Positions 6,158-64,000 of a stretch of 64,000 bases of DNA are shown in pieces. The DNA comes from an uncultured Acidobacteriota bacterium (lineage in GTDB: Bacteria; Acidobacteriota; Thermoanaerobaculia; Multivoradales; UBA5704). A model generated the notes under the pieces. It ran no database searches. It had not been told where the DNA came from and saw nothing but the letters and a program-made list of their open reading frames with translations. A program made the position numbers and the translations under genes. How positions within the stretch are numbered: position 1 is the stretch's first letter; every line of letters starts with the position of its first letter. The DNA is taken from positions 5,248,001 to 5,312,000 of the forward strand of contig OY969474.1 in the NCBI GenBank assembly GCA_963700145.1, given 5' to 3'.

Positions 6158-6188
6158 CCTCAAGAGCTAACATAGGGCCTGCGGAAGC

Positions 6189-6425
6189 ATGCCTACCGTC
6201 CTGAGAGTCGGTCCCTACCGCCTCTTCTTCGTCTCACAGGACCGTGGGGAGCCTCCGCATGTGCACGTGCGGCGGGAGAACAAGGTGGCGAAGCTCTGGT
6301 TGGATCCGCTCGCCCTGCAGAGCGCGGGCGGCTACAGCCGCTCGGAGCTCAACACGATCGCCGCGATGGTGCAGGAACACCGCGAGGAGCTACTGGAGAG
6401 CTGGTATGAATTCTTTGGTCGTTGA
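6189..6425 (+). CDS. DUF4160 domain protein (putative toxin)
   Basis: MPTVLRVGPYRLFF..EPPHVHV..AKLWLDP..W.EFFG. Confidence 0.9.
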   Translation: MPTVLRVGPYRLFFVSQDRGEPPHVHVRRENKVAKLWLDPLALQSAGGYSRSELNTIAAMVQEHREELLESWYEFFGR

Positions 6426-6723: not shown

Positions 6724-6734
6724 TCCAGCGCCCT

Positions 6735-46182: not shown

Positions 46183-46850
46183 AACTCCGCCGTCTCGCCT
46201 GCGCCGCGCTCCTGCTCCTCGCGCACGCCGGCGTCGCCGCGGAGCTGCGCGGCAAGATCCAGCTCCTCGGCAAAGGGGGCAAGCCCGCCCAGGGGAGCGA
46301 CCTGCGGCACGCCGTCGTCTCCTTCCAGCCGGCGGCGGCGCACCGCCCGGCCCCGGCGGCGGCGCCGCTCGAGATGGTGACGCGCAAGAAGCAGTTCGAG
46401 CCGCGCGTCCTGGCGATCACCACCGGCAGCCGGGTGCGCTTCCCCAACCTCGACCCGATCCTCCACAACGTCTTCTCCGTCACCTCCGACCATGCCTTCG
46501 ACCTCGGCCTCTACCAGAAGGGCCCGGGCAAGGAGAAGCGCTTCGACCAGCCGGGGGTGGTGCGCGTCTTCTGCAACGTCCACCACGCGATGGTGGGCTA
46601 CGTCGTGGTGCTCGACACGCCGTTCCGCGTCCACCCGGACGCGCTCGGCAACTTCACCCTCACGGGCCTCCCCGCCGGCGCCGGCAAGCTCACCGTCTGG
46701 CACGAGCAGATCGAGCCCTGGACGCTCGACCTCACGCTGCCGCGCCCGGGGATGATCGCCGCCCGCCTGGAGGTCACCCGCCCGCGCCTCCCCGCCCACC
46801 TCAACAAGCTCGGCAAGCCCTACACCGGCCGTGACCGCTACCGCGACTAG
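46179..46850 (+). CDS. Periplasmic cupredoxin-like protein with carboxypeptidase-regulatory-like domain
   Basis: FPNLDPILHNVFS..FCNVHHAM: His/Cys/His/Met type-1 copper ligands. Confidence 0.85.
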   Translation: MKLRRLACAALLLLAHAGVAAELRGKIQLLGKGGKPAQGSDLRHAVVSFQPAAAHRPAPAAAPLEMVTRKKQFEPRVLAITTGSRVRFPNLDPILHNVFSVTSDHAFDLGLYQKGPGKEKRFDQPGVVRVFCNVHHAMVGYVVVLDTPFRVHPDALGNFTLTGLPAGAGKLTVWHEQIEPWTLDLTLPRPGMIAARLEVTRPRLPAHLNKLGKPYTGRDRYRD

Positions 46851-49470: not shown

Positions 49471-50657
49471 TGCCGCTCGACGGTCTCGGCGGCGCGGCCG
49501 GGCTGCCGCTCGACGGCGGCTCCCACCGCCTGGCCGAGGCGGAGAAGATGCTGGAGATCGGCGCCAAGCTGGCGGAGACGCTCCAGCTCGAGCGGGTGCT
49601 CGAGACGGCGCTGGAGGAAGCCGAGCAGCTCTGCCAGGACGAGACCAGCTCGATCTGGGAGCTCGACCCGGAGCGCGGCGAGCTCTTCTTCCGCGTCGTG
49701 CGCGGCCGGGCGGCGGGGGAGATCCGCGGGCTGCGCGTGCCGCTGGGGGAGGGGATCGTCGGCAGCGTCGCGCGCTCCGGCGTCGCCGAGGCGGTCAACG
49801 ACGTCGCCGCCGACCCGCGCTGGCGCGGCGACGCCGGCGAGTCGTTCCACACCCGGGCGCTCCTCGCCGTGCCGCTGGTGGCGCGCGGGGCGGTGATCGG
49901 CGTCCTCCAGCTCCTGAATCCGATCGGCCGCGAGGGCTTCGACGACGAGGACCTCCGCCGTATGGAGCTCTTCGGCGGCCTCCTCGCCAACCCGCTCCAG
50001 AACGCGCGCCTGCACGCGGCGCAGCGCCAGCAGTTCCTCGACACCGTGACGATCCTGGCCGAGTTCGTCGAGAAGCGGGACCCCTACACCGGCGGCCACT
50101 TCCGCCGCGTCGCGGCCTACGCGGTGCTGCTCGGCCGGGAGCTGGGGCTCGACCGCGAGACGCTCGAGGAGCTCAAGTACGCCGCCACCCTGCACGACAT
50201 CGGCAAGATCGCCGTGCCGGACGCGATCCTCGGCAAGCCGGCGCCGCTCGACGAGGTCGAGGCCGAGGTGATGAAGCGGCATCCGGCGGTCGGGTCGGAG
50301 ATCGTCGGCCGGCTGCGCAACCTGCGCCACGTGCTGCCGGGGGTGCGCAGCCACCACGAGCGGGTGGACGGCCAGGGCTACCCGGACGGCCTGGCCGGGG
50401 AGGAGATCCCGCTGGTCGCCAAGATCATCGCCGTCGCCGACACCTTCGACGCCATGACCACCAGCCGCCCCTACCGCGCGGGGATCGCGCCGGCCGAGGC
50501 GGCGGCCGAAATCGCCGCCCAGTCGGGGAGGCAGTTCAGCCCCGCCGTCGTCGAGGCCTTCTCCGCCCTCTTCGCCCGCGGCGAGCTGTCGCTGGCGCGG
50601 GGGAACGAGGTGCTGGAGGCGCTCTCGCCGCCGGCGGGGGAAGGGCCGGCGCGCTAG
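49467..50657 (+). CDS. GAF plus HD-GYP phosphodiesterase
   Basis: RDPYTGGH, LHDIGK, HHERVDGQGYP, VADTFDAMT. Confidence 0.93.
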   Translation: MMPLDGLGGAAGLPLDGGSHRLAEAEKMLEIGAKLAETLQLERVLETALEEAEQLCQDETSSIWELDPERGELFFRVVRGRAAGEIRGLRVPLGEGIVGSVARSGVAEAVNDVAADPRWRGDAGESFHTRALLAVPLVARGAVIGVLQLLNPIGREGFDDEDLRRMELFGGLLANPLQNARLHAAQRQQFLDTVTILAEFVEKRDPYTGGHFRRVAAYAVLLGRELGLDRETLEELKYAATLHDIGKIAVPDAILGKPAPLDEVEAEVMKRHPAVGSEIVGRLRNLRHVLPGVRSHHERVDGQGYPDGLAGEEIPLVAKIIAVADTFDAMTTSRPYRAGIAPAEAAAEIAAQSGRQFSPAVVEAFSALFARGELSLARGNEVLEALSPPAGEGPAR

Positions 50658-50664
50658 GCGCCGC

Positions 50665-51390
50665 TCACTCTAGGACGACGAGCTCGACCCCGTTGCAGCC
50701 GTCCACCGGTACCTCCACCCGCTCCTGAAGGAGCCGGCCGGCGCCGCCGCGAACGTCGGCGGAGACGGTGAGCTCGCCCGAGAGCGGCCCGGCGAGCGCG
50801 AAGAGGCCGTCGGCGCCAGTGGTCGCCGCGCGCCGCTGCCCGCCGGGGCCGGTCACAGTGATCCGCACGCCGGGGAGCCCCGTCCCCGCTTCCCACTCCT
50901 CCTGGTCGCGGGTCTTCCGCACCACCCGGCCGTAGAGCGCCGTCACCGGCTCTCCGGCCAGCCGCCGGCGGGCGTAGCGGAGCTCCTCGCCGGCGACGGA
51001 GGCGCGGGTGGTGCCGCCGCAGAGACCGGCGTAGACCGCGCCGTCGTACTGCCGGTGCCAGGCGTGGACGAAGTAGCTCTCGCCGGGCTTGAACTCGATG
51101 CCGCAGTCGCCGCCGCCCAGGCCGCTCAGGACCTCGACGGTCTTCCCCTCGACGCCCCAGAATGCCTCCTCGACGGCGAAGGTGTAAACCCGCTCCGGCC
51201 AGGGGCCGCGCTGCCGCTCGACGGGCTTCCCGACCGTGTGCCCGAGGAAGACCAGCGCGCCCTCGTGGAACATCTCGCACGGCTGGCTGTTCCCCAGCGA
51301 CCAGACGCAGGAGCAGGCCTCGGCGGGCCTGCCGGACCCCACGACCGACCCCACCAGGACGACGACGAGCGCTATGTTGGAGCCGCGCAT
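50665..51390 (-). CDS. Secreted protein with TIMP/NTR-like N-terminus and carboxypeptidase-regulatory-like domain
   Basis: AEA-CSC..VFLG..DCG..F..GESY.V..LC; TTGADGLF. Confidence 0.7.
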   Translation of the reverse strand: MRGSNIALVVVLVGSVVGSGRPAEACSCVWSLGNSQPCEMFHEGALVFLGHTVGKPVERQRGPWPERVYTFAVEEAFWGVEGKTVEVLSGLGGGDCGIEFKPGESYFVHAWHRQYDGAVYAGLCGGTTRASVAGEELRYARRRLAGEPVTALYGRVVRKTRDQEEWEAGTGLPGVRITVTGPGGQRRAATTGADGLFALAGPLSGELTVSADVRGGAGRLLQERVEVPVDGCNGVELVVLE

Positions 51391-51548
51391 GACGGCCTCC
51401 TTTCTCTCCGGGAGGTTAGACACCGCGGGCGACGTGGAGGCCAACCCGTACTCCGATCAGTGCCCGCTCCGGCGGGCAACCCTGCGGGTAGCAGAGCCCA
51501 TCACCGGGCTCTGCAACCGGCGCCTGCTAACATTTCGCGCGCCCGCCC

Positions 51549-53225
51549 ATGCTGCGTCTCCGTTTCGTCGTCGAGGGCCAAGAGCGCGTCGTGCCGCTGG
51601 TGCGCGACCTGCAGCTCGGGCGCGGCGCCGACAACGACCTCGTCCTCCCCGACAGCTCGGTCTCCCGCCACCACGCCGACGTCCGCCGCGCCGGCGACGG
51701 CTGGGTGGTGGAGGACGCGCGGAGCACCAACGGCGTCCAGGTCAACCGGCTGCCGGTGCAGCGGGCGCCGCTCCACCCCGGGGACCGGCTGACCGTCGGG
51801 GTCTTCGAGTTCGCCGTCGAGCTCTCCGCTCCCGCCCCGTCCCGCCCGCCGCTGCCGCCGCCGGCCGAGGGCCCGACCTCGGTCGCCCCCCTGGCCAACG
51901 CGACGCTCGTTCGGCCGCTCGCCGACTTCGAGAAGCGCCAAGCCCTCGACCAGGCCTACGAGAACCGCATCTTCGGCTTCATGACGCGGCTGGCGCGGCT
52001 CCTCCTCGCCTCCGACGCCGTCGACGAGGTGCTCGACCAGGTCCTCGACCTCGCCTTCGAGGCGCTGCCGGTCGACCGCGGCTTCATTCTGCTGCGCGAC
52101 GAGGAGGCGGGAGGCGAGCTGGTCTGCGAGCTGGCGCGCAGCAAGGGGCGGCGCGAGTTCCGTCCCCAAGGCGCGGTGCCGGTCTCGCGCACCATGCTGC
52201 AGGCGGTGATGAGCGAGCGGGTGGCCCTGGTCACCTACGACGCCCAGGCCGACCAGCGCCTCTCGGGCGGCGAGTCGGTCCGCATCCACCAGATCCGCGC
52301 CGCCATGTGCGCGCCGCTCTGGTCGGAGGAGCGGATCATCGGCGTCGTCCAGGTCGATTCCCCGGTCAAGGCCGGCGCCTTCACCGAGCGCGACCTCGAC
52401 TTCCTGACCGCGCTCGCCAACTACGCGGCGGTGGCGATCGAGCGGCTGCGCTACGCACGGCAGGCGGAGATCGAGCGCGAGGCCCGCGGCCGGCTCGAGC
52501 GCTACCACTCGCCGGCGGTGATCGAGGAGGTGCTGCGCGCCGGCGCCGCGGGGGAGAGCCGCCGGCTGCGGGTGGCGCAGGCGACGGTTCTCTTCGCCGA
52601 CCTGGCCGGCTTCACGCCGTTCGCCGAGCACGCGCCGCCGGAGGAGGTCGCCGAGCTGCTCGACGCCTACTTCAACCGCGCGGTGGACGCCGTCTTCACC
52701 GCCGGCGGCACGCTCGACAAGTTCATCGGCGACTGCGTCATGGCCTTCTTCGGCGCGCCGGTGCCGCAGGAAGACCACGCGGTGCGCGCGGTGCAGGCCG
52801 CGGTGCGCCTGCAGGAGGCGCTGGCGGAGTGGAACGCCGAGCGGGCGGCGCTCGGGCAGCCGCCGCACCTGGCGCGCATCGGCATCAACAGCGGGCCGGT
52901 GGTGGTCGGCGACATCGGCAGCAGCCGGCGGGTCGACTACACGGTGCTCGGCAACACGGTCAACGTCGCCTCCCGCCTCGAGGCCCTGGTCGCCCGCCCC
53001 GGCGACATCGTGCTCGGTCCCGAGACCCACCGCCTGCTGGCCGGCGCCGTCCCCACCGAGCCGCTAGGCGAGCTGCAGCTCAAGGGCCTCCAACAACGGA
53101 TCACCGCCTATCGCGTCCTCGCCGCCGGCCCGGTCCTTGCAAAGCGCGGGGCCGGGGACGGTCCTCCCCAGCAGGGCCCGCGCGGCGGGCCGGCATCGTC
53201 AGCCCGGAACCGGAGGACGCCATGA
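51549..53225 (+). CDS. FHA-GAF-class III adenylate cyclase
   Basis: GRG..VSRHHA..STNG (FHA); FADLAGFT, DKFIGDCVM, DYTVLGNTVNVASRLE. Confidence 0.93.
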   Translation: MLRLRFVVEGQERVVPLVRDLQLGRGADNDLVLPDSSVSRHHADVRRAGDGWVVEDARSTNGVQVNRLPVQRAPLHPGDRLTVGVFEFAVELSAPAPSRPPLPPPAEGPTSVAPLANATLVRPLADFEKRQALDQAYENRIFGFMTRLARLLLASDAVDEVLDQVLDLAFEALPVDRGFILLRDEEAGGELVCELARSKGRREFRPQGAVPVSRTMLQAVMSERVALVTYDAQADQRLSGGESVRIHQIRAAMCAPLWSEERIIGVVQVDSPVKAGAFTERDLDFLTALANYAAVAIERLRYARQAEIEREARGRLERYHSPAVIEEVLRAGAAGESRRLRVAQATVLFADLAGFTPFAEHAPPEEVAELLDAYFNRAVDAVFTAGGTLDKFIGDCVMAFFGAPVPQEDHAVRAVQAAVRLQEALAEWNAERAALGQPPHLARIGINSGPVVVGDIGSSRRVDYTVLGNTVNVASRLEALVARPGDIVLGPETHRLLAGAVPTEPLGELQLKGLQQRITAYRVLAAGPVLAKRGAGDGPPQQGPRGGPASSARNRRTP

Positions 53226-53431
53226 CCGAGATCAACGTGCAGCGCCGGCGGACCAACCCCTGGCCCTGGCTCCTGGGCCTGCTCGCGCTGGCCCTGCTAA
53301 TCTGGGTGCTCGTCGGCTCGATGAGCGACGGCCCCGAGCCGTCGGCCACCGGCGAGGGCACCACCAAGGGCGCCGCCTCCGAAGGCCCCCCGCCCGAGCG
53401 CCCGCCGCTCCCGCCCATGCCGGTCGCCTGA
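53222..53431 (+). CDS. Small single-TM protein
   Basis: GGAGG RBS; MTEINVQRRRTNPWPWLLGLLALALLIW. Confidence 0.7.
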   Translation: MTEINVQRRRTNPWPWLLGLLALALLIWVLVGSMSDGPEPSATGEGTTKGAASEGPPPERPPLPPMPVA

Positions 53432-53571
53432 CCGGCCGCCCCACCTACCGGGCCCCCCTTCCATCCGGTGAGGGAAACGGCGCCCTCTTCTCGTCTAACT
53501 GGTAAGCCGCGAGGCCGGTAACGGCCGCGACGGTCCAGCGCCTAAGCAACAAGATGGGAAGAAGGTGGACT

Positions 53572-55242
53572 ATGACGAACCCTCGGTTCTCCGCGTCGCT
53601 CTCTCTGCTCGCCGTCCTCGGCGCCCTGGCCTCCTCGCCGGCGGCCGCCGAGGCATCGGTCAAGTTCGTCTCGATCGACCAGGACCAGGCGACGGCCGAG
53701 GCCGACGAAGCGCTGCGCCAGCTCCTGGAAGGGAAGCTGGGGCAGGAGCTGAGCCCCAAGGCCTTCAAGTACGGCGAAGCCACCAACCGGCTGGCGGAGT
53801 GGAGCGCCGGCGACGGCGCCTACCTGGCGCGGGTCACACCGTACGTCTACATCGCCGCCGAGATGCTGGGCGCCGACTTCGAGGTCCTCGGCACCTACGT
53901 CAGCAAGGCCACCCGCGGCACCACCTACCACTCCTACTTCGTAGTCAACCGCGAGGCGCTGGCGGCGGTGCTGCCGCAGCTCGGCGGCCAGGCGCCCGAC
54001 CTCGACGACCTGCTGCGCTTCATCCGCGAGCGCGCGGCGCAGAAGCGGCCGGCGCGTTTCGTCTACCACAGCGCCTTCAGCACCTCGAGCTATTTCCTGC
54101 CGGCGCTCTTCTTCCGCCGCAACAGCATCTTCTCGATGCCCGAGTCGCGCGGCAGCCTGATCGCCATCGGCAGCAAGCAGCTCGCCGACGCCGGCAGCAC
54201 CGACCTGGTGAAGGAAGTCGCCGCCGGCGGCGCGGACTTCGCCGCCGTCTGGGACGGCACCAAGGTGAAGTTCGCGGGCGGGCGCGAGCACGCGGGCCTG
54301 GGCGAGAGTGTCCATTTCATCCAGCTCCCCAACGTGCTGCCCAACGACCTCCTGGTCTGCTCCCGCGCGCTGGCGAAGACGGCCGCGCGCAAGGTCTTCC
54401 CGCCCGGCGCGCCCACGCGGCTCGCCGTCGGCCGCGACGACTTCGAGGCCTGGGTGGACATCCACGGCGCCGCCGAGGCCCGCGACGCTCTCGCCGGCCT
54501 GCGCTGGCTGGCGCGCGACCAGCGGCTACCGGTGACGGTGCGCATCCAGCGGGGGACGGAGGGGGGCGACGACAAGATCCCCGACGGCTACCTCGAAGCG
54601 GCCGGCCAGGCGGCGCGGCTGTCGGGCACCGAGCTGGTGCTCTACGACGCCAGCTTCCACCGCATCGTCGACTACGAGTGGACGCTGCACTGGGTGCGCG
54701 AGGGGCACATCCGGCTGCGCAGCGAGATCCCGTCCTTCGGCGTGGCGCAGGAGTTCCGCATCAGCTTCCAGCCGGCGGCGGCGGGCGCCGAGGAGCAGGA
54801 CCTGACGCAGCGCATTGGCAACATCCTGGCCTCGCGGCTGCACCGCATGCGCCAGGTCTGGCCCTACGAGAACGACCGGCCGCTGGTGATCCGCGACGTG
54901 CCCTTCTCGGTGGACGCGACGAAGAGCGTCAGGATTCAGAAGGTCGAGTGGAAGGACCCGCTGCGCAACGACTACGCGGAGGGCCGCTCGAACGAGGTGC
55001 GGGTCGAGAGCGCCGACTTCTACCGCTTCCGGCTCGACCAGAAGGACTTCCGCCTGGCGATGGACGAGGGCGGCGAGGCCGCCCGGCTCGACCCGATGAG
55101 CCCGCTCGCCTACCGCGTCCTGCTGGAGCGCAAGCAGGAGCCGCAGACCGTCTTCCACGTCTTCAACGTCGTCTTCTTCGCCCTGGTCGGGCTGTCGGGC
55201 ACCGGCACGGTCCTGGCGTTCCGGCGCTCGCGGCGGGCTTGA
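53572..55242 (+). CDS. PhnD-like (phosphate/phosphonate-binding fold) protein with extra domains and C-terminal TM anchor
   Basis: TPYVY, TYHSYFVV, STSSYFLP, LPNDLLV; signal peptide; C-terminal hydrophobic helix followed by RRSRR. Confidence 0.7.
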   Translation: MTNPRFSASLSLLAVLGALASSPAAAEASVKFVSIDQDQATAEADEALRQLLEGKLGQELSPKAFKYGEATNRLAEWSAGDGAYLARVTPYVYIAAEMLGADFEVLGTYVSKATRGTTYHSYFVVNREALAAVLPQLGGQAPDLDDLLRFIRERAAQKRPARFVYHSAFSTSSYFLPALFFRRNSIFSMPESRGSLIAIGSKQLADAGSTDLVKEVAAGGADFAAVWDGTKVKFAGGREHAGLGESVHFIQLPNVLPNDLLVCSRALAKTAARKVFPPGAPTRLAVGRDDFEAWVDIHGAAEARDALAGLRWLARDQRLPVTVRIQRGTEGGDDKIPDGYLEAAGQAARLSGTELVLYDASFHRIVDYEWTLHWVREGHIRLRSEIPSFGVAQEFRISFQPAAAGAEEQDLTQRIGNILASRLHRMRQVWPYENDRPLVIRDVPFSVDATKSVRIQKVEWKDPLRNDYAEGRSNEVRVESADFYRFRLDQKDFRLAMDEGGEAARLDPMSPLAYRVLLERKQEPQTVFHVFNVVFFALVGLSGTGTVLAFRRSRRA

Positions 55243-55256
55243 GCGGAGGGACCGCC

Positions 55257-55631
55257 ATGGGCTGCGCGCTCTCGCTGGTATCGAACGACCTCCACCCCGA
55301 GGACCTGCACGATCTGTCGCTCGACCTGCGCGACGACCTCGCGGCGGCCGGCGTCGAGGCCGAGCCGGTCGAGGAGAAGGCGCCGGGGGCGACCCGCGGC
55401 GATCTGATGACGATCGGCAGCCTGGCGCTGACCCTGGTCACCAGCGGCACGGCGGCCGCCCTGCTCAACGTCGTCCGCGCCTACTTCGACCGCAGCGCGT
55501 CGGCGCCGGTCGTCGTCGAGCTGACGCGGCCCGACGGCGCCAAGCTGACGGTCCAGGCCGGCAGCCTGCGCGGCGCCGAGTTCGAGCGCACGCTGTCGCT
55601 CGCCAACCAGTTCCTGGGGACGCCGCCGTGA
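55257..55631 (+). CDS. EACC1 (effector-associated constant component 1)
   Basis: L..DL..GV...APGATRGD..IGSLALTLVTSG..ALLNVVRAYF.R..VELTRPDG.KL; coupled to a caspase gene. Confidence 0.8.
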   Translation: MGCALSLVSNDLHPEDLHDLSLDLRDDLAAAGVEAEPVEEKAPGATRGDLMTIGSLALTLVTSGTAAALLNVVRAYFDRSASAPVVVELTRPDGAKLTVQAGSLRGAEFERTLSLANQFLGTPP

Positions 55632-57577
55632 GCGAGCAGCGCTACGCCGTCCTCATCGGCAACAGCAGCTTCCCCAGCGAGGCAAAGCTGCCGCCGCTGC
55701 GCTTCCCCGAGAACGACGTCGACGCCCTCCACGAGCTGATCACCTCGGAGGAGCACGGAATCTTCACCCAGACCTTCGTGCTCAAGAACCGCTCCAGCCA
55801 GGAGGTGCGCGAGCGCGCCAACGAGGTGCTGAACCTGGCCGAGCGCGACGACCTGGTGCTCCTCTACTACGCCGGGCACGGCAAGCTCAACCGGCGGGGG
55901 AAGCTCCACCTGGCGACGGTCGACACCCGGCTCTCGACGCTCGAGGCCACGTCCTTCCCGGTCAGCAGCCTGCGCGACTTCATGGAGATCTCGCGCTCGA
56001 AGCGGATCGTCGTGATCCTCGACTGCTGCTACAGCGGCGCCGCCGGCGGCGTCTTCACCCGCGGCACCACCGACGACTCGCTGCAGCAGTTCGCCTCGGG
56101 CCGGGGCATCCAGGTGATGACGGCCTCGACCGGCATCGAGGTGGCGGAGGAGCGGGAGCAGGACGGTCACGGCGTCTTCACCAAGCACCTGCTGGCGGGG
56201 ATCCGCGGCGGCGCCGACGAGGACGGCGACGGGCTGGTCTCGGTCGACGAGCTGTACCGCTACGTCCACCGCCACGTGGTCCAGGACAGCGCGCAGGTGC
56301 CGACCATGCTCAACCTGGAGAAGGCCGGCGACCTGATCATCGCCAAGAGCGGCCGCAAGCCGCGCGAGGAGCGCAACCGGCAGATCGCGGAGCGGCTCTT
56401 CCGGCTCGCCCAGGAGGGCGTCGTCACCCATCGCTTCATCGGCGACGTGCTGGCCAGCCTCGAGACCCGCTACGCCGTGCGCACCGCCCGGCAGAAGGAG
56501 CAGCACGACCTCCTCGAGCGCTGGATGGGGGAGAAGCTCGGGATCGGCGAGCTGGTCGAGTGCTGGAACCGCCTGGGTCTCGAGGAGGGGGCGATCGTGG
56601 TCCCGGCCCGTCCTGCCCCGGTCGACGAGGCGCCGGCGCCGATCGCGCCCGCACCTCCCGAGCCCGTACCGCCCGCGCCCGCTCCCGTCGTGGTGGATCG
56701 ACGCGACGAGCCGCGCCGCGCCCCTTGGACTCTGCGGTCGATCCTCGCCGCCCTGCGCGCGGCCCCGGCGCGGGCGCTCGCCAGCGGGCTGGACGGGCGT
56801 CTCGGCCTGAGTCTCCTCCTCGCCGCGGTCTTCACCTTCAACCTGGTCGAGACGAACCTCGAGACCCTGGCCGCCGGCTCGGCTGCGGGGCAGCGGCTCG
56901 CCGAGCTGGGGAACGACTTCGCGCTGGCGAGCCAGAAGCTGGAGGGCGACCTGGGACTCGCCAAGAGTCTGAACTTCGTCGATCACGACGCCGCGCCCCG
57001 CCTCTCGGCGGTCGTCTACAGCGCCTCGTACTTCTTCGTCTTCCCGGCGCTCTGCGTCGCCGTGGCGCTCGGACTGGCGCGCCGGCGGGAGATCGCGCCC
57101 TTCCGCGTCTACACCCTGGCGCTTGCCGCCGACTACGCGGTGAGCCTGCCGTTCTTCCTCCTGCTGCCGATCCCCGAGCGCTGGGCCTTCCCCGGCTCCG
57201 GGGCGATCCTGCTCTCCGACAGCTTGAGCTCGCACCTCATCGACGCCATCCGGCCGATGAGCGGCCTCGACAACTGCTTCCCGAGCTTCCACGTCTCGAT
57301 GACGGTCATCGCCATTCTGGTCTGCTTCCGCTTCAAGGCGCGCTTCCGGGTGGCGGCGCTCGGCCTGGGGGCGACCGTCGTCCTCTCCACCCTGGTCCTC
57401 GGCATCCACTGGGTGGGCGACATGATCGCCGGCACCGCGGTGGCGGCGTTCAGCGTCGCCGTCGCCGCCTGGCTCGACGTCCGGCTCGCCGCGCGGCGGC
57501 CGCGCCCGGCGGCGGAGCCCGCGCCGGAACCTTCGTCGATCTCCGCCGTACATAGGCTCGTACACCTACGGCCGTAA
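55628..57577 (+). CDS. Caspase (C14, EACC1-associated type) fused to a PAP2-family membrane domain
   Basis: YYAGHG and ILDCCYSG dyad; GVFTKHL; Pro-rich linker; NCFPSFH and STLVLGIHWVGD. Confidence 0.88.
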   Translation: MSEQRYAVLIGNSSFPSEAKLPPLRFPENDVDALHELITSEEHGIFTQTFVLKNRSSQEVRERANEVLNLAERDDLVLLYYAGHGKLNRRGKLHLATVDTRLSTLEATSFPVSSLRDFMEISRSKRIVVILDCCYSGAAGGVFTRGTTDDSLQQFASGRGIQVMTASTGIEVAEEREQDGHGVFTKHLLAGIRGGADEDGDGLVSVDELYRYVHRHVVQDSAQVPTMLNLEKAGDLIIAKSGRKPREERNRQIAERLFRLAQEGVVTHRFIGDVLASLETRYAVRTARQKEQHDLLERWMGEKLGIGELVECWNRLGLEEGAIVVPARPAPVDEAPAPIAPAPPEPVPPAPAPVVVDRRDEPRRAPWTLRSILAALRAAPARALASGLDGRLGLSLLLAAVFTFNLVETNLETLAAGSAAGQRLAELGNDFALASQKLEGDLGLAKSLNFVDHDAAPRLSAVVYSASYFFVFPALCVAVALGLARRREIAPFRVYTLALAADYAVSLPFFLLLPIPERWAFPGSGAILLSDSLSSHLIDAIRPMSGLDNCFPSFHVSMTVIAILVCFRFKARFRVAALGLGATVVLSTLVLGIHWVGDMIAGTAVAAFSVAVAAWLDVRLAARRPRPAAEPAPEPSSISAVHRLVHLRP

Positions 57578-57597
57578 GGCCGACGGAGGAGATCGAG

Positions 57598-58731
57598 ATG
57601 TCGCGAGCCGCGCTCGCGGTGGCCGCCCTGCTGGCGGTCGCCGCCGTTCCCGCATCCGCCCAGTCCGCCCTCTCCCTGCCGCCCAGCGGCGACAACCAGC
57701 GCTCGGTCGTCACCCAGTACATGGGGCTCGTCTCGGCGAGCATCGACTATAGCAGCCCCGACGTCACCAGCCCGACCGGCGAGGACCGCCGGGGGAAGAT
57801 CTGGGGCCAGCTCGTGCCTTACGGCATGACCGACCTGGGCTTCAACGGCGGCAAGCCGAGCCCCTGGCGGGCCGGCGCCAACGAGAACACCGTCTTCACC
57901 GTCTCGCACGACGTGCAGGTCGAGGGCCAGCCGCTGCCGGCCGGCCGCTACGGCCTGCACATGATCCCCGGCGCCGAGGAGTGGACGGTCGTCTTCTCGA
58001 AGAACTCCAGCACCTGGGGGAGCTACTGGTACGAGCCGTCCGAGGACGCCCTGCGCGTCACGGTCAAGCCGGTCAAGAACGAGTACCGGCACTGGCTGAC
58101 CTACGAGTTCGACGACCGGCAGCAGGACTCGAGCGTCGCCTCCCTGCAGTGGGAGGAGCTCAAGGTGCCGTTCAAGATCTCGGTGCCCAACGGCAACGAG
58201 CTCTACTTCCGACAGGTCTCGGACGAGCTGCGCGGCGCTCCCGGCTTCGACTTCCAGGCCTACGAGAACGCGGCGCAGTTCGCCCTGCAGCGCGACATCC
58301 ACCTCGACCAGGCCCTGGTCTGGGCCGAGAAGGCGAGCGGCCCGCCGCTGGGGCGCGAGACCATCTCCACCCTGACGACCAAGGCGCAGGTCCTCGACAA
58401 GCTCGGCCGGAGCGAGGAGGCGCACCAGGCGGTCAAGAAGGCGCTCGACCTGCCGTCGGCCTCGGCGGTCGACATCCACATGCTGGGCCGCCAGCTCCAG
58501 GGGCAGGGGAAGGTCAAGGAGGCGGTCGAGGTCTTCAAGCACAACGCCAAGCGCTACCCGGGCGTCTGGCCGACCGAGGTCGGCCTGGCGCGCGCCCACT
58601 CGGCGCTCGGCGAGTACGAGACGGCGCTGGAGCACGCGAAGACGGCGCTGGCCCAGGCCCCCGACCCGCAGAACAAGCAGTCGCTCGAGCGGGCGGTCAA
58701 GATGCTGACGGAAGGGAAGGACTTCAACTAG
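57598..58731 (+). CDS. DUF2911 domain plus TPR protein
   Basis: IDYSSP..KIWG.LVPYG..WRAGANENT; C-terminal TPRs. Confidence 0.9.
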   Translation: MSRAALAVAALLAVAAVPASAQSALSLPPSGDNQRSVVTQYMGLVSASIDYSSPDVTSPTGEDRRGKIWGQLVPYGMTDLGFNGGKPSPWRAGANENTVFTVSHDVQVEGQPLPAGRYGLHMIPGAEEWTVVFSKNSSTWGSYWYEPSEDALRVTVKPVKNEYRHWLTYEFDDRQQDSSVASLQWEELKVPFKISVPNGNELYFRQVSDELRGAPGFDFQAYENAAQFALQRDIHLDQALVWAEKASGPPLGRETISTLTTKAQVLDKLGRSEEAHQAVKKALDLPSASAVDIHMLGRQLQGQGKVKEAVEVFKHNAKRYPGVWPTEVGLARAHSALGEYETALEHAKTALAQAPDPQNKQSLERAVKMLTEGKDFN

Positions 58732-58764: not shown

Positions 58765-61700
58765 GTGCGCGAAACGCAGGCGAGGCCGGGGCAGCATCGG
58801 GCCGCCCTACTCGCCGTGTGCCTGGCACTGGTTCCCTCCTGCCGCCCGCGAGGCGGTGAGCAGGACCTCGCGGTGCTGGAGGCTGAGGTCCTCGGCGCCG
58901 TCGATGAATTCGCGGCGCCGCTGCCTCGGTTCAGCGGCACCGCAGTCGGCGAATCGGCCTTCAATCCTTTTGTCGCCCGCTCCTGTCCACGCGCACTCGA
59001 TCCTGGGAGCGTTCCCCACAAAGTAAGTGTGGCAGACGTACGTCGTCTCCGCATTCTCGCCCGAGAGCTCGAGCAGCTCAGAACCTCTCCACGCCACGAA
59101 GCGGCGGCGCTCAGAGTGCGAGCTTTGTGGATACTCGTCGCGGATCCGACGCCACGAGGCCGCGATCGACTGATTCAGCTTCTCGAAGCCGCTCTTGCGA
59201 GGGCTCCGAAATCGCCGGAGCTTCTCAACGATCTCGCCGTCGCCCATCTTCTTCGAGCCACTGTGGACGGCGCCACCGGCGAGCTTGCCGCTGCGCTCGA
59301 GGTCCTCGAGCGCGCCGGCGCCAATTCCCGTCTCGGACCCGCCGCTCTCTTCAATCGCGCTTACGCGCTCCAGTGCCTTTCCTTGTGGAGCGATGCCCCG
59401 GAAACATGGCGGCGCCTCCCGGGAAGTCCGGACGCACTTCGGCGCCGACCCAAAGTCGCGCCGCAAACGCAGAGCTCCCCCCTCGCACTGCGGCGCCGAG
59501 GTGAGTGGCTGCTTGGAGAATGGGCCGCTCAGAGGATGCGGGGTGAGTCGCAGAAAGCTGAAGAGCGGCTGGCCGAAGCAGAAAAGATCGGCACACGATT
59601 AAGAGAGCGGAGCAAGGATCGTCTTCTGAGTGACTCCGTGCGGACGATTCGAGAAGCGCTGCAACAGGGCCGACGTGGCCAACTTCTCCAACTCCAACGC
59701 GGGCATAGGACCTTCCACGCGATTCGTGGCACGGCCATCTTCTCCCAGTGCGAAGCAGAGGCTCTGGCGTCAGCCGAACGTTCCCTCAGCGCGACCGGCA
59801 CTCCGTTCGTCGGTTGGGTGCGACTCGACGAGGCCGTCTGCGCGTATTTCGCAAAGGACTTCGTTCGCATCGAGAGCATCCTGCTCCCTCTGCGCAAGGA
59901 AGCGCGGCGCCTCTCAGCGCTAGCCCTCGAGGGGAGGTGCGAGTGGATGCTCGGCCTCGTGCGCATGGTGCAAGCGCGGTTCGTCGAAGCTGACCTGCGC
60001 TACGCCGCGGCGATCGACCGCTTCTCCCGACTCGGAGAAACGGGGCATGTTGTGTACCTGCGCTCACTGCGGGCCAAGAACTATGAGTTCGGCGGCGCAC
60101 GTCGGGAAGCTTGGCGCGAGCGAATGGCAGCGCTGCAAGCGAGGGGCGCTGTAGAAGACCCCGAGAGGCTGTTCACGATTTTCCAGGAAGCGGCCCAGGC
60201 ATTGAGACGCCAAGGTTATCGGGCCGCGGCACTCCGATTCGTGACCGAGCAGATGAGGGCTGCGGAGCGGGCGGCGCGCGCGACTGGTGAGACCGCCCTA
60301 CTCGCTTACACACTCATTGGGCGCGCTGGATTGCTCGACGAAATGGGGGAGACTGCGAAGGCGACAGCAGATCTCGATCGCGCGGAGCAGCTCTGGTCCC
60401 GACTGGAAGCCGACGACGAGAGCAAGCGCGACATTCGGGTCGACATCGATGTCCAACGCTTACTTCTCGCAGCGGCAAGACCCCGGAAGGATCTGGCCGC
60501 AGTCGATCGGGCTCTCGCCTTCTATTCGGGTACCAGCTCGCTCGGCGATCAGATCGAAGTCCTGAAGCTGCATCGGCTGCGCGCCCAGGTGCAGCTCCAG
60601 CTGCGGCGGCCCGCAGCGGCGCGCGCCGACCTGCAACAGGGGGTCGCGGAAATCGAACGCCAGCGCCTCGAGATTGCCTTGCCGGAGGACCGGGCCCGCT
60701 TCGTCGGCGAGGCCCGCGGCCTCTTCGAGGATTTGATCCGCTTGGAGCTCGACGTCTTTCAGGATGCCGCCGCGGCGCTCGACGTCCTCGAGCGGAGCAG
60801 CAATCGGTTGCTGGCGGACGTGGCGGGAGTTGGGATGTCAGCCCTGCATCGCGTTCCGGCCGATGTCCTCGTAGTGCGCTATGGGCACCTGTCGAACAGG
60901 CTGCTCGTTTGGACATTGCAGCACGGCCGATTGGAGCTCGAGCAACACCCTGCCGCCGCCGCAGACCTTGCCCATCAAGCGCAACGCTGCCGCACATCGC
61001 TGATGGCCGGAGACGCGACGCGGGGCTCCGGCACCGGCTGTGAAGCGCTGGCAAGAACGATCTTGCCGAAGCGCCTCCTGACACAACCGGACGAAACCTC
61101 CGTCGTGATCATTCCGGACGAGCTCCTCGTCGCCCTGCCGTTCGCCGCACTGAGAACAGTGCCTGACGCGCCGTATTTTATCGAGCGTTTCACGTTGAGC
61201 TACGCCCCGAGCCTGGCACTCTTGGCAGAAGGCACGGCTGGACCTCTTCCCCACCCTATCTCGGCCCCTCGTGCACTTTTTGTCTCCGACCCCGCGTTCG
61301 ATCGCGAACGTTTCCCCAGGCTATCTCGCTTGGGCAGAGCGCAAGAATTCGTCGCCGCGCACATGGCGCGTTACCCCGAGTCCGAGCTGCTCACCGGCCC
61401 CGACGCGACGGTTCCCGCCGTCATCAGAGCACTCAGCCGCTGCGATCTCCTGCACTTCGACGGGCATGGGATCGTCAATGCCCAGGTCCCGGAGCGCGGG
61501 GGACTCCTCCTTGCGCCCGATGCGCCGCGAGGGGTCGGTGAGGAATCGGGGCTTCTCACCGCAGACGATCTACCGCCGGCCGCGCTGAAAAGACTGCGTT
61601 TGGTGATCCTCGGTGCCTGCTCAACCGGCCTCGCTACCTATCCTGACACGGCGGAAGTCGCGGGCCTCGCGGCCACCTTTCTCGCGCGCGGGGTTCCCGA

Positions 61701-61926
61701 CGTTGTGACCGCGGCCTGGGATGTGCCGGACGAGGGCGCGGCCCTGCTTCTCGACCTGCTGCATCGAGAGCTCGCGGCCGGCCAGCCGACAGATAGGGCG
61801 CTGCGTGCAGCACAACTGGCGCTCCTCCGCTCCGATGCGCGAGGTTCGCGGACTTGGGCAGCATTCCAGCTGTTCCGCGGCGGCGGCGGAAAAGACAAAG
61901 CGCTGTCCGTCCAAACCAAGCGTTGA
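58765..61926 (+). CDS. TPR-CHAT domain protein (caspase/HetF-like)
   Basis: IIPD..L..LPFAAL, LLHFDGHG, LVILGACSTG, FLARG..VV...W.V.D, WAAFQL. Confidence 0.9.
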   Translation: MRETQARPGQHRAALLAVCLALVPSCRPRGGEQDLAVLEAEVLGAVDEFAAPLPRFSGTAVGESAFNPFVARSCPRALDPGSVPHKVSVADVRRLRILARELEQLRTSPRHEAAALRVRALWILVADPTPRGRDRLIQLLEAALARAPKSPELLNDLAVAHLLRATVDGATGELAAALEVLERAGANSRLGPAALFNRAYALQCLSLWSDAPETWRRLPGSPDALRRRPKVAPQTQSSPLALRRRGEWLLGEWAAQRMRGESQKAEERLAEAEKIGTRLRERSKDRLLSDSVRTIREALQQGRRGQLLQLQRGHRTFHAIRGTAIFSQCEAEALASAERSLSATGTPFVGWVRLDEAVCAYFAKDFVRIESILLPLRKEARRLSALALEGRCEWMLGLVRMVQARFVEADLRYAAAIDRFSRLGETGHVVYLRSLRAKNYEFGGARREAWRERMAALQARGAVEDPERLFTIFQEAAQALRRQGYRAAALRFVTEQMRAAERAARATGETALLAYTLIGRAGLLDEMGETAKATADLDRAEQLWSRLEADDESKRDIRVDIDVQRLLLAAARPRKDLAAVDRALAFYSGTSSLGDQIEVLKLHRLRAQVQLQLRRPAAARADLQQGVAEIERQRLEIALPEDRARFVGEARGLFEDLIRLELDVFQDAAAALDVLERSSNRLLADVAGVGMSALHRVPADVLVVRYGHLSNRLLVWTLQHGRLELEQHPAAAADLAHQAQRCRTSLMAGDATRGSGTGCEALARTILPKRLLTQPDETSVVIIPDELLVALPFAALRTVPDAPYFIERFTLSYAPSLALLAEGTAGPLPHPISAPRALFVSDPAFDRERFPRLSRLGRAQEFVAAHMARYPESELLTGPDATVPAVIRALSRCDLLHFDGHGIVNAQVPERGGLLLAPDAPRGVGEESGLLTADDLPPAALKRLRLVILGACSTGLATYPDTAEVAGLAATFLARGVPDVVTAAWDVPDEGAALLLDLLHRELAAGQPTDRALRAAQLALLRSDARGSRTWAAFQLFRGGGGKDKALSVQTKR

Positions 61927-62023
61927 GGTAGGGCTCCGAGGCCAGGGCTGCTTGCGCACTCCGCGCCAGCAGAAACTAGCTTCGTCACAGCTTCGTGACG
62001 AGCGCGACGAGGAGGGATTCCAC

Positions 62024-63052
62024 ATGTCGAGGAAGGCCATTCTCCTACTAGTTCTTTTGCCCGTGTTGGCATGCAGAAGGGATGCGCCGGACCGTGCTAC
62101 GCCATCAGAGGAGTCGGTGGCGACGGCGGAGGCAATCGAACCATACACGTTGAACGTGACGTTCGCGGGACTCATCGCCTTCGCCAAGGCACAGCTCCAA
62201 GGGAGGCCCGTCGTCTGGGCGCTGCTTCCGGACGCCAAGTACATTCCGGGCAGCCACGCCAGCGAGGATCTGCCGCCGTGCATTGGCGACGAAGGCCCTT
62301 CGATCGGACAGCTTAGGGCGCGCGTGCCGCCGCATCACCCAGCGCTTCGGTTTACGGGTGCGACAGTGGACCTGGATGGAGTACCGGTCGACGTCTCCAG
62401 GCCCTTCCTGATCGACGAGAAGGACCTCCGCATCGCAACTGGTGTGCCGGGTCCGGGCACCACAGACGACGTAGCTCTCTCCACGAAAGAGGAGCTCTTC
62501 GACGTTAGGGGAGGGGCCGTTGGTGACTACGCGGCGTTCGATGTGGTTGCGAATAACTACATTGACTCCGATGGTCGAGTGCCGGAGAGAGAACGATTTC
62601 TGATCGCTCGGGTCCTGATCGACTTCGGCACTACGTTCCTTGCGAGCCCTCTGAACTGCGAGGGAGCGACGCTCCAATACGGCTTCAAGACACCGGCCGA
62701 GAACGGTTGCACCAATCCGGTGGCCAGGCTCGCTGAGGAGATTGAGGTCACACAGTCTACAACGCAGCCCGTCACGATCACTCTCCTCCCTGGCAACCAG
62801 GTTCTGAAGGTACGTCCCGCAACGCCGGGAGGGAAGGTCACGGTCGAAGTCCTCAATGTTATGGAGGAGGCACTTGGCCAACACACTGATCCCTGCAGCG
62901 AACTCTCTCGTCAACATCTCGAGGCGTATCGTTGGTTCTACCGGCTGTTGGCCAATGCAGGAAGTTGCGACAGGCACTTTTTCCCTTGCCGTTTTCCTGG
63001 GGGCGAGAGCGACTTCGGCGGCGACAGGTGCCCCGTGAAGGGGTTGGGATGA
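62024..63052 (+). CDS. Hypothetical lipoprotein downstream of the CHAT gene
   Basis: GGAGG RBS; lipobox VLAC; FAGLIAF..H.P.L..WFY.LL; several cysteines. Confidence 0.7.
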   Translation: MSRKAILLLVLLPVLACRRDAPDRATPSEESVATAEAIEPYTLNVTFAGLIAFAKAQLQGRPVVWALLPDAKYIPGSHASEDLPPCIGDEGPSIGQLRARVPPHHPALRFTGATVDLDGVPVDVSRPFLIDEKDLRIATGVPGPGTTDDVALSTKEELFDVRGGAVGDYAAFDVVANNYIDSDGRVPERERFLIARVLIDFGTTFLASPLNCEGATLQYGFKTPAENGCTNPVARLAEEIEVTQSTTQPVTITLLPGNQVLKVRPATPGGKVTVEVLNVMEEALGQHTDPCSELSRQHLEAYRWFYRLLANAGSCDRHFFPCRFPGGESDFGGDRCPVKGLG

Positions 63053-64000
63053 GTCGGCTCGACGGCGGAGAGAAACGGTGGCCTCGCGCCCGGTTCGCAA
63101 GGCTCGGAGCACTCGCTACGCTCGCAATGGCGACCAGCGGGTGGCTGGCTTGCACTAGTTCCCGGACGCCCTCGGCTACGACGAGTCCCGACGACGAAGA
63201 ACAGTTCGAGGTCGTCGCCACTGCCGATAGCAGCCCTGAGGGCGGCATTGTCGTGCACCAGTTCCTGCACGGCGAGAATCCCGGTTGCACCAGCGCCAGC
63301 CTAGCGGGTGCCGCGCCCTGCGCTCGCCAGCCATTCCTCCGGGTTCCAGAAAGCTGGCAAGCACGCCTTGTTCACGAGCAGTGTCCGCAGCCGGATGAGG
63401 ACTGTCGACCCTTCTTCCGTGACGCCCGCTCTGGAGGCGCCGACGAGGACAGATTACAGGGCTTGGAGCACGGGCACCTCGTCTTCTATTCGGGACATGG
63501 AGAACCAAGGAAATGGGATGTGAGAGTGGCCCAGGAAATGGAATCCAGTGAGACCTCTCTTGGGGACGAGCTAACCCGATATTTATGGCTGTTGAGCTGC
63601 CAAGTCATGGCGCACGGGCCATTGCGAAAGATCCCCTCTCTTTCTCCGACGAGCACCGCCACAGACTATCTGGCGCCGCAGGAATTCGATCCGCAGGCCT
63701 TGGATCAGGCGAACGTCTTTCGGGACTTCGCCACGAATTACGGCAGCACTGCAGTGCCGCGCATCCCACTCAACGCGAAGCTCCGCCTCGCCTGCGGTGG
63801 TTCGACGAAGATAGGGGGCGGCGGTTCAAACTTCCCCATGGCACCCAGCTGGCACTACAAGCTCATGGCGGGCTTGCCGGTGGCCGATTCGTTCATCCTC
63901 GGTCTTGCCAACGGTTACCGTGTGCCTCTGTGCATGACTCGCGGAGGTGCTGGACCCGAGCATAGCCCGCTCTACGATGCGGACTTCGTCACCGACCAAA
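63049..64000 (+). CDS. DUF6345-like lipoprotein with caspase-like His/Cys motifs (3' end outside window; missing from ORF track)
   Basis: ATGA overlap with upstream stop; hand translation is open to the window end: ..WLAC..VFYSGHG..LGD..RYLWLLSCQVMAHG..LRLACGGST. Confidence 0.7.
   Translation, partial: MSRLDGGEKRWPRARFARLGALATLAMATSGWLACTSSRTPSATTSPDDEEQFEVVATADSSPEGGIVVHQFLHGENPGCTSASLAGAAPCARQPFLRVPESWQARLVHEQCPQPDEDCRPFFRDARSGGADEDRLQGLEHGHLVFYSGHGEPRKWDVRVAQEMESSETSLGDELTRYLWLLSCQVMAHGPLRKIPSLSPTSTATDYLAPQEFDPQALDQANVFRDFATNYGSTAVPRIPLNAKLRLACGGSTKIGGGGSNFPMAPSWHYKLMAGLPVADSFILGLANGYRVPLCMTRGGAGPEHSPLYDADFVTDQ

Follow-up and report, generated by a model that had tools for sequence, protein, structure and literature searches.

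We describe here a three-gene cassette in the genome of an uncultured Acidobacteriota bacterium (GenBank assembly GCA_963700145.1, contig OY969474.1), found in a window of 64,000 nucleotides (nt) that spans positions 5,248,001 to 5,312,000 of the forward strand and whose numbering is used throughout. The cassette occupies 53505-57581 and encodes, co-directionally on the + strand, a membrane-anchored protein with a predicted fold like that of the phosphonate-binding protein PhnD (P0003, 562 amino acids (aa); hereafter the partner), a small EACC1 protein (P0001, 124 aa), and a caspase fused to a PAP2 domain (P0002, 649 aa). We propose, with a probability of roughly 60%, that the cassette encodes a periplasm-facing sensor that gates the caspase, which in turn cleaves EACC1 into a pore. 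More tentatively, and at somewhat less than even odds, we suggest that the PAP2_3 domain and its transmembrane (TM)-anchored PhnD-like partner constitute an undescribed and widespread two-protein transmembrane receptor, present at no fewer than 273 loci. In such a receptor an enzyme-like lipid-phosphate site and an oxyanion-binding cleft would read a periplasmic phospho-ligand, or the lipid-phosphate state of the envelope, and relay it to interchangeable outputs (Ser/Thr kinase, SARP, TIR, CHAT, or caspase-EACC1). We assign the sensor role to PAP2 and its partner because their layout is receptor-like, because kinase and SARP outputs dominate the family, because the C-terminal domain of another EACC1-associated caspase provides a precedent, and because the partner ectodomain is mosaic between related genomes.

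In the proposed mechanism the partner, held on the periplasmic side of the membrane by its C-terminal TM helix, would join the PAP2_3 domain of the caspase protein in one membrane complex. Its PhnD/AioX-like cleft would bind a phosph(on)ate-like oxyanion, or a ligand bearing one, and the catalytic face of the PAP2 domain (His-His-Asp and the loop residue Arg542) would sit directly beneath the partner's membrane-proximal domains. The signal from binding or turnover of ligand at this periplasmic site would reach the caspase in the cytoplasm by way of the TM bundle and helical linker, and would likely alter the oligomeric state of the caspase. The active caspase would then cut EACC1 within a G-x-K/R-G-D/E motif (residues 45-49), a type of step shown for another EACC1 by Evans et al. 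(bioRxiv 10.1101/2025.11.14.688446), and the freed C-terminal fragment with its hydrophobic helix would form membrane pores, killing or arresting the cell. Four parts of this scheme are our inference: which way the signal runs, what kind of ligand is bound, that EACC1 is cleaved, and that the cassette serves cell death or defence.

The EACC1-caspase pair and its fusion to PAP2

The three genes are closely packed. The partner and EACC1 genes are separated by 14 nt containing a GGAGG-like site, and the TGA stop codon of EACC1 overlaps the GTG start codon of the caspase gene in the sequence GTGA (55628-55631). The features described in an initial annotation of this DNA, namely EACC1, the GTGA overlap, the caspase dyad, the helical region, the Pro-rich linker and the PAP2 motifs, are all present at the positions it gave (Table 1). 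The source genome is a single 5.46-Mb contig that contains one copy each of EACC1, of a PAP2 module of the P0002 type and of a P0003-like gene. A scan of 53100-57900 for promoters and terminators returned none of either, a result that is uninformative for a genome of 72% GC, in which promoters are possibly not of the sigma-70 type.

P0001 scores 30.5 bits against Pfam PF19953 (cut-off 23.6), and P0002 scores 178 bits against the NCBIfam model NF047832, 'caspase, EACC1-associated type' (cut-off 140). Both are above the family cut-offs, and the two genes thus form an EACC1-caspase pair in which the region C-terminal to the caspase is variable, the known arrangement (Kaur et al. 2020, PMC7159879) to which the initial annotation had assigned them. 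No NCBIfam model for EACC1 matches P0001 at E <= 0.1. P0002 also matches the general caspase family PF00656 (64.8 bits) and, in its C-terminal part, PF14378 PAP2_3 (44.2 bits, cut-off 27) and PF01569 (36.1 bits, cut-off 27.2). The domain matches are far above chance, since curated cut-offs are passed and the domains are conserved in relatives. The caspase residues H84, C133 and C134 and the PAP2 residues F551, P552, S553, H555, H594 and D598 are invariant in all six full-length caspase+PAP2 proteins that were aligned, and the metacaspase pattern D-x-C-x-S-G points to C134 as the probable caspase nucleophile.

An EACC1 open reading frame (ORF), detected with a self-built iterated EACC1 hidden Markov model, lies directly upstream of the EACC1-type caspase in 62 of 80 metagenomic loci. 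The most conserved stretch in an alignment of 55 EACC1 proteins is P43-x-G45-x-K/R47-G48-D/E49, with G45 kept in 49 sequences, K/R47 in 54 and D/E49 in 38, and hydropathy places it directly before a hydrophobic, Gly/Ser/Thr-rich helix (residues 52-70). This motif (residues 45-49) is the predicted cleavage region of EACC1, with R47 and D49 as candidate P1 residues, and it coincides with the PGATR/GD region at which the initial annotation had tentatively placed the cut. According to Evans et al. (bioRxiv 10.1101/2025.11.14.688446), a Ktedonobacter EACC1 is cut into fragments of 5.7 and 7.1 kDa at a site modelled at Asp49, toxicity comes from the C-terminal fragment only, liposomes leak only with the cleaved protein, and the C-terminal domain (Avs12) of the EACC1-KrAvs12 caspase is the sensor. 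That account matches the statement of the initial annotation that EACC1 is activated by cleavage and disrupts membranes.

The fusion of caspase to PAP2 is recurrent. A word-index protein search identified five other caspase+PAP2 proteins, with 34-62% identity to P0002 (P0005, P0006, P0007, P0009 and P0032). An exhaustive search of 1.84 billion cluster representatives found both domains, checked with Pfam, in four of the best 150 matches (P0006, P0009, P0032 and P0124), and so P0124 is a sixth. All six pass the EACC1-associated caspase model with 164.7-176.5 bits, so that the search for caspase (C14) plus PAP2 architectures suggested in the initial annotation does return diverged examples. The possibility that the fusion is a one-off or a misassembly was rejected, given these six proteins, the single-contig source assembly, and nt identities of 95-98% and 84% to two further assemblies. 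A metagenome scan with the full-length alignment found PAP2 or the partner in none of 80 EACC1-type caspase loci among the matches listed.

Most caspase relatives with other C-termini align to P0002 from residue 2 to about residue 320-370, and share the helical region at 240-330. Their C-terminal domains include FGE-sulfatase, WD40, TPR, CHAT and PLD-like domains, among others. The closest relative of the caspase half is a metagenome protein of 1040 aa (P0010), with 69% identity over the first 53% (residues 1 to ~340) of P0002. P0010 ends in CHAT instead of PAP2, and so combines two caspase-fold proteases in one EACC1-type protein. As the nearest caspase relative carries CHAT, and the PAP2 module is found on other domains, P0002 is the junction of two independently mobile modules.

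The PAP2 module and its periplasmic partner

The C-terminal 250 residues of P0002 are 45-55% identical to the C-termini of very many kinase, TIR, CHAT and SARP/BTAD proteins, and a few proteins with this PAP2 module reach ~1000-1100 aa and carry an added Phosphonate-bd domain. The connection to the partner is explicit in such fusions: P0003 aligns over residues ~38-561 with the C-terminal halves of two kinase-PAP2-X proteins (P0043 and P0116) and a TIR-PAP2-X protein (P0104), at 39-42% identity and E values of 2e-105 to 2e-118.

A scan of one genome per prokaryotic species for the PAP2 module gave 273 confirmed loci, of which the best 80 were examined. A P0003 relative, located with tblastn, adjoins the PAP2 gene or is fused to it in 74 of the 80, and in the six loci where it is missing (L012, L029, L030, L043, L071 and L079) no more than ~470 nt of contig remain on the side normally occupied by the partner. 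The partner is encoded upstream on the same strand in most loci and downstream in the kinase loci of Gemmatimonadota; it is fused in frame in L015, L019 and L080, and lies on the opposite strand in L067, L070 and L075. Two further arrangements combine a stand-alone PAP2 with a longer partner protein. L046 encodes a TIR-TM-partner protein followed by PAP2, and in L004 (2833-3687), L014, L016, L053 and L055 the partner has ~280 extra C-terminal residues beyond its TM helix. Because of these architectures the cytoplasmic domain can evidently sit on either protein. The ~280-aa extension of the five loci has no Pfam match, and a protein-atlas search with that of L004 gave a best score of 0.78, below the useful range, and so the domain is left unnamed. 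It looks like an output domain of the PAP2+partner unit and is predicted to be cytoplasmic.

Structure prediction points to a direct complex. We modelled residues 31-562 of P0003 (66-row alignment) together with the PAP2 domain (72-row alignment) in three runs. The ipSAE values were 0.78, 0.75 and 0.69, with a median of 0.75, and the highest-scoring of three controls reached 0.00. The ipSAE mark is reached by 116 of 157 solved complexes and by 2 of 215 mismatched pairs, counts that are rough since our own alignments were used. At least 79% of the contacts are common to the runs, and the partner has a predicted local distance difference test score (pLDDT) of at least 81. In the predicted interface the TM helix of the partner (528-559) packs on TM2 and TM5 of the PAP2 domain (P0002 447-467 and 572-590), with the lowest predicted error for contacts between partner residues 534-548 and residues 75-83 and 195-206 of the PAP2 domain. 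The periplasmic loop 519-542, with its invariant E-R-W and R542, faces partner residues 381-428 in the model. Taken together, the fusions, the adjacency and the predicted complex identify the upstream P0003-type gene as the obligate partner of the PAP2 module. The initial annotation had guessed that the PhnD-like gene belongs to the system, and the same three lines of evidence, with the shared block 53505-57581 described below, strongly support that guess.

Hydropathy analysis divides P0003 into an N-terminal signal or anchor segment (12-30), ~500 periplasmic residues, the TM helix (533-551) and a short RRSRRA tail. An AlphaFold (AF2) model of the protein has a pLDDT of 89.9 and a predicted template modelling score (pTM) of 0.83. 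When residues ~35-320 of the model were compared with the PDB using Foldseek, the only matches were oxyanion binders of the PhnD/PtxB/HtxB/AioX/ArrX/XAC2383 type (E 1.3e-10 to 1e-8, TMt 0.6-0.7, probability 1.00), among them PtxB 5o37 (E 1.3e-10), ArrX 6x8w (TMt 0.71), PhnD 3p7i and AioX 6esv. Alignment with E. coli PhnD by hhalign pairs P0003 FSTSS (175-179) with NSTSG (probability 65%, E 5.9e-5), the motif that in PhnD holds the phosphonate oxygens. Residues S176, T177, S178 and S179 are kept in 64-66 of 66 partner family members, and ten scanned relatives of P0003 pass PF12974 with 31.6-71.1 bits (cut-off 27). No ABC permease or ATPase gene was found among the scanned neighbours of the cassette. 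AioX and ArrX are sensor proteins, whose signal goes to histidine kinases in the membrane and which do not supply a transporter.

Residues 322-530 of the partner form two small domains (sub-model pLDDT 91.9, pTM 0.87). The best structural matches to this region were FlgT-like proteins, the TolB N-domain, LptE, PelC and the CadC periplasmic domain (Z 8.6-7.5; Foldseek E 6e-5 for FlgT). These lie within the background of the tool, and we therefore claim no fold family for the region.

The PAP2 domain is predicted to have six TM helices with both ends in the cytoplasm, based on hydropathy and on the positive-inside rule applied to the inward loops RRRE (485-496) and RFKARFR (568-574). This topology places the ERW/RP loop, PSFH and HWVGD on the periplasmic face. 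Among 72 aligned PAP2 modules, E439, E517, R518, W519, D531, R542, N549, P552, S553, H594 and D598 are kept in all, and H555 and P543 in 69 each. A domain-only profile compared with the PDB found B. subtilis PgpB (5jki) as its best match (E 0.0011), with RP, PSxH and HxxxD aligned. An earlier mixed-architecture profile had been swamped by kinase matches and was of no use for this purpose. Given the near-invariance of the motif residues, the PAP2 domain looks catalytically competent as far as sequence can indicate. Measured against the canonical C1, C2 and C3 motifs of PAP2 enzymes, the module has no conserved Lys upstream of R542 at the C1 position (KxxxxxxRP), has Thr at the position of the C3 'SR' arginine in 68 of the 72, and adds an invariant E-R-W loop. 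In these respects it appears to resemble phosphotransferase-like PAP2_3 proteins, which are of the sphingomyelin synthase or inositol-phosphorylceramide synthase type, more than phosphatases of the PgpB type.

This degree of conservation is difficult to reconcile with PAP2 and its partner being a mere membrane anchor or scaffold that places the caspase by the membrane on which EACC1 acts while activation comes from elsewhere. Membrane proximity may itself be selected, as TM helices occur in at least 33% of the caspase proteins of EACC1 systems (Kaur et al. 2020, PMC7159879). An anchor would nevertheless leave unexplained a triad kept in 69-72 of 72 modules, an ERW/RP loop kept in 72 of 72, an S-T-S-S motif kept in 64-66 of 66 and a periplasmic partner of 500 residues, as well as the sharing of the whole unit with kinases and SARP regulators, and we consider it very improbable.

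The conserved triad bears differently on a second alternative, in which PAP2 is the output. Here EACC1 or another cytoplasmic cue would activate the caspase, which by autoproteolysis or a conformational change would switch on a PAP2 enzyme fed by the binding protein, and this enzyme would remodel or deplete envelope lipid phosphate such as undecaprenyl pyrophosphate, phospholipid or lipid A. Such roles follow Kaur et al. 2020 (PMC7159879), who proposed a membrane-sensor role for EACC1 and an effector role for the variable C-terminal domains, which the caspase would release. The near-invariant His-His-Asp triad and Arg542 suggest real catalysis, and depletion of a lipid carrier is, we infer, a plausible way to kill a cell. 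The assignment of roles by Evans et al. is the reverse, with EACC1 of that other pair as the toxic cleaved effector and Avs12 as the sensor. Moreover, the domains fused to the PAP2+partner unit are mostly Ser/Thr kinases and include DNA-binding SARP regulators, all of them signalling outputs rather than regulators of a phosphatase, and a six-TM domain embedded in the membrane cannot be 'released'. An output role for PAP2 is thus decidedly unlikely. In the sensor reading that we prefer, sensing would, to judge from the triad, involve catalysis or at least the covalent or tight binding of a phosphate ester.

The triad is altered in three closely related PAP2-TIR proteins from Nitrospinaceae and Nitrospirae records (L073, L077 and L078). 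Their equivalent of H555 is P, F or S and P543 is replaced by Ser, with H594 and D598 kept; these proteins may be catalytically dead sensor variants.

Table 1. Positions of the cassette genes and of their main features in the window
Feature	Position	Strand	Basis or content
Partner gene P0003, 562 aa	53554-55242	+	signal/anchor segment, PhnD/PtxB/AioX-like domain, two membrane-proximal domains, C-terminal TM helix, RRSRRA tail
Periplasmic binding-protein domain of P0003 (residues ~35-320)	53656-54513	+	PhnD/PtxB/HtxB/AioX/ArrX fold, predicted structure
Oxyanion S-T-S-S motif of P0003 (176-179)	54079-54090	+	hhalign against E. coli PhnD
Two membrane-proximal periplasmic domains of P0003 (322-530)	54517-55143	+	sub-model
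C-terminal TM helix of P0003 (533-551)	55150-55206	+	hydropathy
EACC1 gene P0001, 124 aa, predicted latent pore-forming effector	55257-55631	+	PF19953
Conserved EACC1 motif (45-49), predicted cleavage region	55389-55403	+	alignment of 55 EACC1
EACC1 hydrophobic helix (52-70)	55410-55466	+	hydropathy
Caspase-PAP2 fusion gene P0002, 649 aa	55628-57577	+	Pfam and NCBIfam matches
EACC1-type caspase domain (P0002 5-228)	55640-56311	+	NF047832, PF00656
Caspase H84	55877-55879	+	alignment
Caspase C133-C134	56024-56029	+	alignment
Helical region (P0002 240-330), then Pro-rich linker (331-385)	56345-56782	+	alignments of relatives
PAP2_3 domain, six TM, N-in/C-in	56789-57487	+	PF14378, PF01569, hydropathy
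FPSFH (P0002 551-555)	57278-57292	+	predicted periplasmic face
HWVGD (P0002 594-598)	57407-57421	+	predicted periplasmic face

Outputs, distribution and genomic setting of the unit

The domains attached to the PAP2-bearing ORF, as recognized with Pfam in the 80 loci, are varied. Ser/Thr kinases are found in 43 loci, CHAT in 8, an N-terminal TIR in 5, a C-terminal TIR in 8 and BTAD/SARP in 2, and a caspase in 2 (L001 and L002 only, both with EACC1). The remaining 12 ORFs consist of PAP2 alone. In six of these the cytoplasmic domain is on the partner protein, four (L030, L062, L071 and L079) are at or near a contig end, and L047 is unexplained. In L057 a TIR ORF overlaps the PAP2 ORF in another frame (5400-6731 and 5818-6687), which is probably a frameshift, due to sequencing error or to decay into a pseudogene, in a TIR-PAP2 gene. 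We built a quick tree of 72 PAP2 domains by maximum likelihood, leaving out eight loci with short matches and letting the window stand in place of L001; it requires at least 17 changes of architecture (minimum possible 8, shuffled mean 33.6). In this tree the caspase pair is sister to the Thermoanaerobaculia TIR-PAP2 protein of L003 with an SH-aLRT support of 100.

Loci with the PAP2 module occur in several phyla, including Acidobacteriota, Gemmatimonadota and Nitrospinota. Within the order, by contrast, a search of 60 other genomes (full module at E < 1e-90) found the full module in two of the four genomes of the same genus and in none of the 56 others, which have generic PAP2 motif matches only. 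The two same-genus genomes that lack it are 91% and 95% complete. The two that have it correspond to L001 and L002, and so are not additional cases. One of them is syntenic with the window from 49001 to 58728 at 95-98% nt identity. In the other only 53505-57581 aligns, and the differing flanks encode an S1/P1 nuclease, an FG-GAP/DUF11 surface protein, a PDZ-Sel1 protein and a WD40 protein.

The shared block is uneven in its conservation. The partner ectodomain has 60-74% nt identity, and from ~55100 to 57489, a region comprising the partner TM helix, EACC1, the caspase and PAP2, identity is 89-99%, the only dip being in the Pro-rich and indel-prone linker (67-83%). At the protein level the partner is 63% identical, EACC1 97.6% and the caspase-PAP2 protein 90.5%, and the TM helix of the partner is 100% identical. 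A mosaic of this kind would be expected of an ectodomain that sets specificity and undergoes exchange or diversification. The comparison with L095 shows a sharp, recombination-like breakpoint within the partner gene at ~55100, with the last ~50 codons on the high-identity side.

These data bear on a further alternative, which keeps the mechanism proposed here but removes it from phage defence. The unit would be a general sensor of periplasmic phosphorus or oxyanions, or of the state of the envelope, and its caspase-EACC1 form would bring about stress-induced or developmental lysis or permeabilization. The 43 kinase and 2 SARP units among the 80 fit this idea, as do the signalling proteins next to the cassette in the window and the phosphite, phosphonate, arsenite and arsenate bound by the fold relatives of the partner; stress roles have also been raised for EACC1-DnaK fusions (Evans et al.). 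TIR, CHAT and caspase outputs (23 of 80) are, on the other hand, typical of immune or death modules. The patchy occurrence in the order (two of four same-genus genomes and none of 56 others), the presence in several phyla and the differing contexts in two same-genus genomes form the pattern of an accessory, horizontally moved element, and the mosaic ectodomain likewise speaks for defence. We regard a purely non-defensive role as unlikely.

Several observations weigh against reading the cassette as a death switch with a periplasmic sensor. P0003 itself has no Pfam match at E <= 0.1, scores only 26.2 bits against TIGR01098 (cut-off 112) and, searched against the PDB by sequence alone or as a 66-row profile, gives no match at E <= 1; its assignment as PhnD-like therefore rests on the predicted fold and on its relatives. 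The model of the complex supports binding of the partner to PAP2, and its score expresses model confidence and is not a measurement. The conservation of His-His-Asp fits an enzyme equally well, and the product of that enzyme could be the real output. The mosaic is seen in a single genome pair, and the adjacency of EACC1 and the partner to caspase-PAP2 in three genomes of one genus. A kinase is attached to most PAP2+partner units, and the family may serve ordinary envelope or nutrient signalling. Finally, the cassette lies among signalling genes and in no recognized defence island, and PADLOC-DB 2.0 (2023) gives for P0002 only its generic 'caspase' model (PDLC02987, E 4.6e-11) and no match for EACC1 or the partner.

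The signalling genes in question form a cluster upstream of the cassette (46831-53225), with a dCache-HAMP-Ser/Thr kinase (46831-49470), a GAF-HD-GYP phosphodiesterase (49467-50657) and an FHA-GAF-adenylate/guanylate cyclase (51549-53225). PADLOC matches among these neighbours (PycC and PD-T4-6) were rejected as signs of a defence island, being generic matches to kinase and cyclase domains. The neighbourhood does not decide the biological role of the cassette. Between the cyclase gene and the cassette is an ORF of 69 aa (53222-53431) with one TM helix, a Pro-rich tail and no Pfam match, which is outside the block shared with the second same-genus genome.

Downstream, a DUF2911-TPR gene (57598-58731) starts 20 nt past the stop codon of the caspase-PAP2 gene and is conserved beside the cassette in one same-genus genome. 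It is followed by a TPR-CHAT gene (58765-61926, 1053 aa; PF12770, E 6.7e-50), which places a second caspase-like protease nearby. Neither gene was found in the stretch from the second same-genus genome, and the alignment with the first stops at 58728, without TPR-CHAT. As they are not kept in both genomes, we do not count them as parts of the cassette. The GC content falls from ~0.72 to 0.58-0.67 from ~59 kb on (59000-64000), and this stretch, which includes most of the TPR-CHAT gene, may be compositionally foreign.

Comparison with known systems

The EACC1-caspase pair is of a known kind, and the PAP2+PhnD-like partner sensor unit appears to be undescribed in the literature that we searched. 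The text and two supplementary files of Kaur et al. 2020 (PMC7159879) do not name a PAP2 partner with a PhnD-like protein. Nor is PAP2 named as a partner of EACC1-caspase pairs in the accessible portions of Kaur et al. 2021 (PMC8195603) and Evans et al. 2025 (bioRxiv 10.1101/2025.11.14.688446), which is in keeping with the failure of the initial annotation to recognize PAP2 as a described partner. Our literature search returned no relevant paper joining PAP2 with Phosphonate-bd, with PhnD, a kinase or a sensor, or with caspase, TIR or conflict systems. There is a substantial chance that the PAP2+partner unit represents a new class of receptor.

If our interpretation is correct, the caspase form would represent the first EACC1 death switch to respond to a trigger outside the cytoplasm. 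In the characterized EACC1 modules and related protease-effector modules the trigger comes from sensors that detect phage proteins in the cytoplasm, and the cassette would move surveillance to the periplasm or membrane. More broadly, the unit looks like a general input device, which bacteria have connected to phosphorylation and transcription, to TIR domains that consume NAD and to proteases of two kinds. Identification of its ligand would account for hundreds of uncharacterized receptor kinases in soil and marine phyla, and the unit would provide a natural example of an enzyme-like PAP2 domain employed in signalling.

Receptors such as PknB, with its PASTA domains, and regulators such as CadC and ToxR have a cytoplasmic output, a TM segment and an extracytoplasmic input. 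The PAP2+partner unit shares with receptor Ser/Thr kinases and CadC/ToxR-type regulators this order of parts, and also the exchangeability of the outputs. It differs from them in that its input is made up of two proteins, one with an enzyme-like six-TM domain, and in that its outputs include TIR, CHAT and caspase.

Each half of the input also has its own relatives. P0003 shares a predicted fold and the S-T-S oxyanion motif with the PhnD/PtxB/HtxB transport proteins and the AioX/ArrX sensor proteins, but has ~200 extra periplasmic residues, a C-terminal TM helix and a PAP2 protein as its companion, with no adjacent ABC genes. P0002 has the six TM helices, outer-face active site and RP, PSxH and HxxxD motifs of the PAP2 lipid phosphatases (PgpB, LpxE and PhoN) and PAP2_3 phosphotransferases. 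Unlike PAP2 proteins of the PgpB type it is without the C1 lysine, has Thr for Arg in C3 and an E-R-W loop, is paired with a binding protein and is fused to a signalling or death domain.

The closest comparison is with the two-gene EACC1-caspase system itself ('System 4' of Kaur, Burroughs, Iyer & Aravind 2020, PMC7159879; EACC1-KrAvs12 of Evans et al.). The cassette shares with it a 5' EACC1 gene and a 3' gene for an N-terminal EACC1-type caspase followed by a variable C-terminus, and also the intact His-Cys dyad and the conserved EACC1 motif before a hydrophobic helix. It departs from these systems in its PAP2_3 C-terminal domain and its obligate third gene and, whereas EACC1-KrAvs12 senses a cytoplasmic phage protein, sensing by the cassette would be periplasmic.

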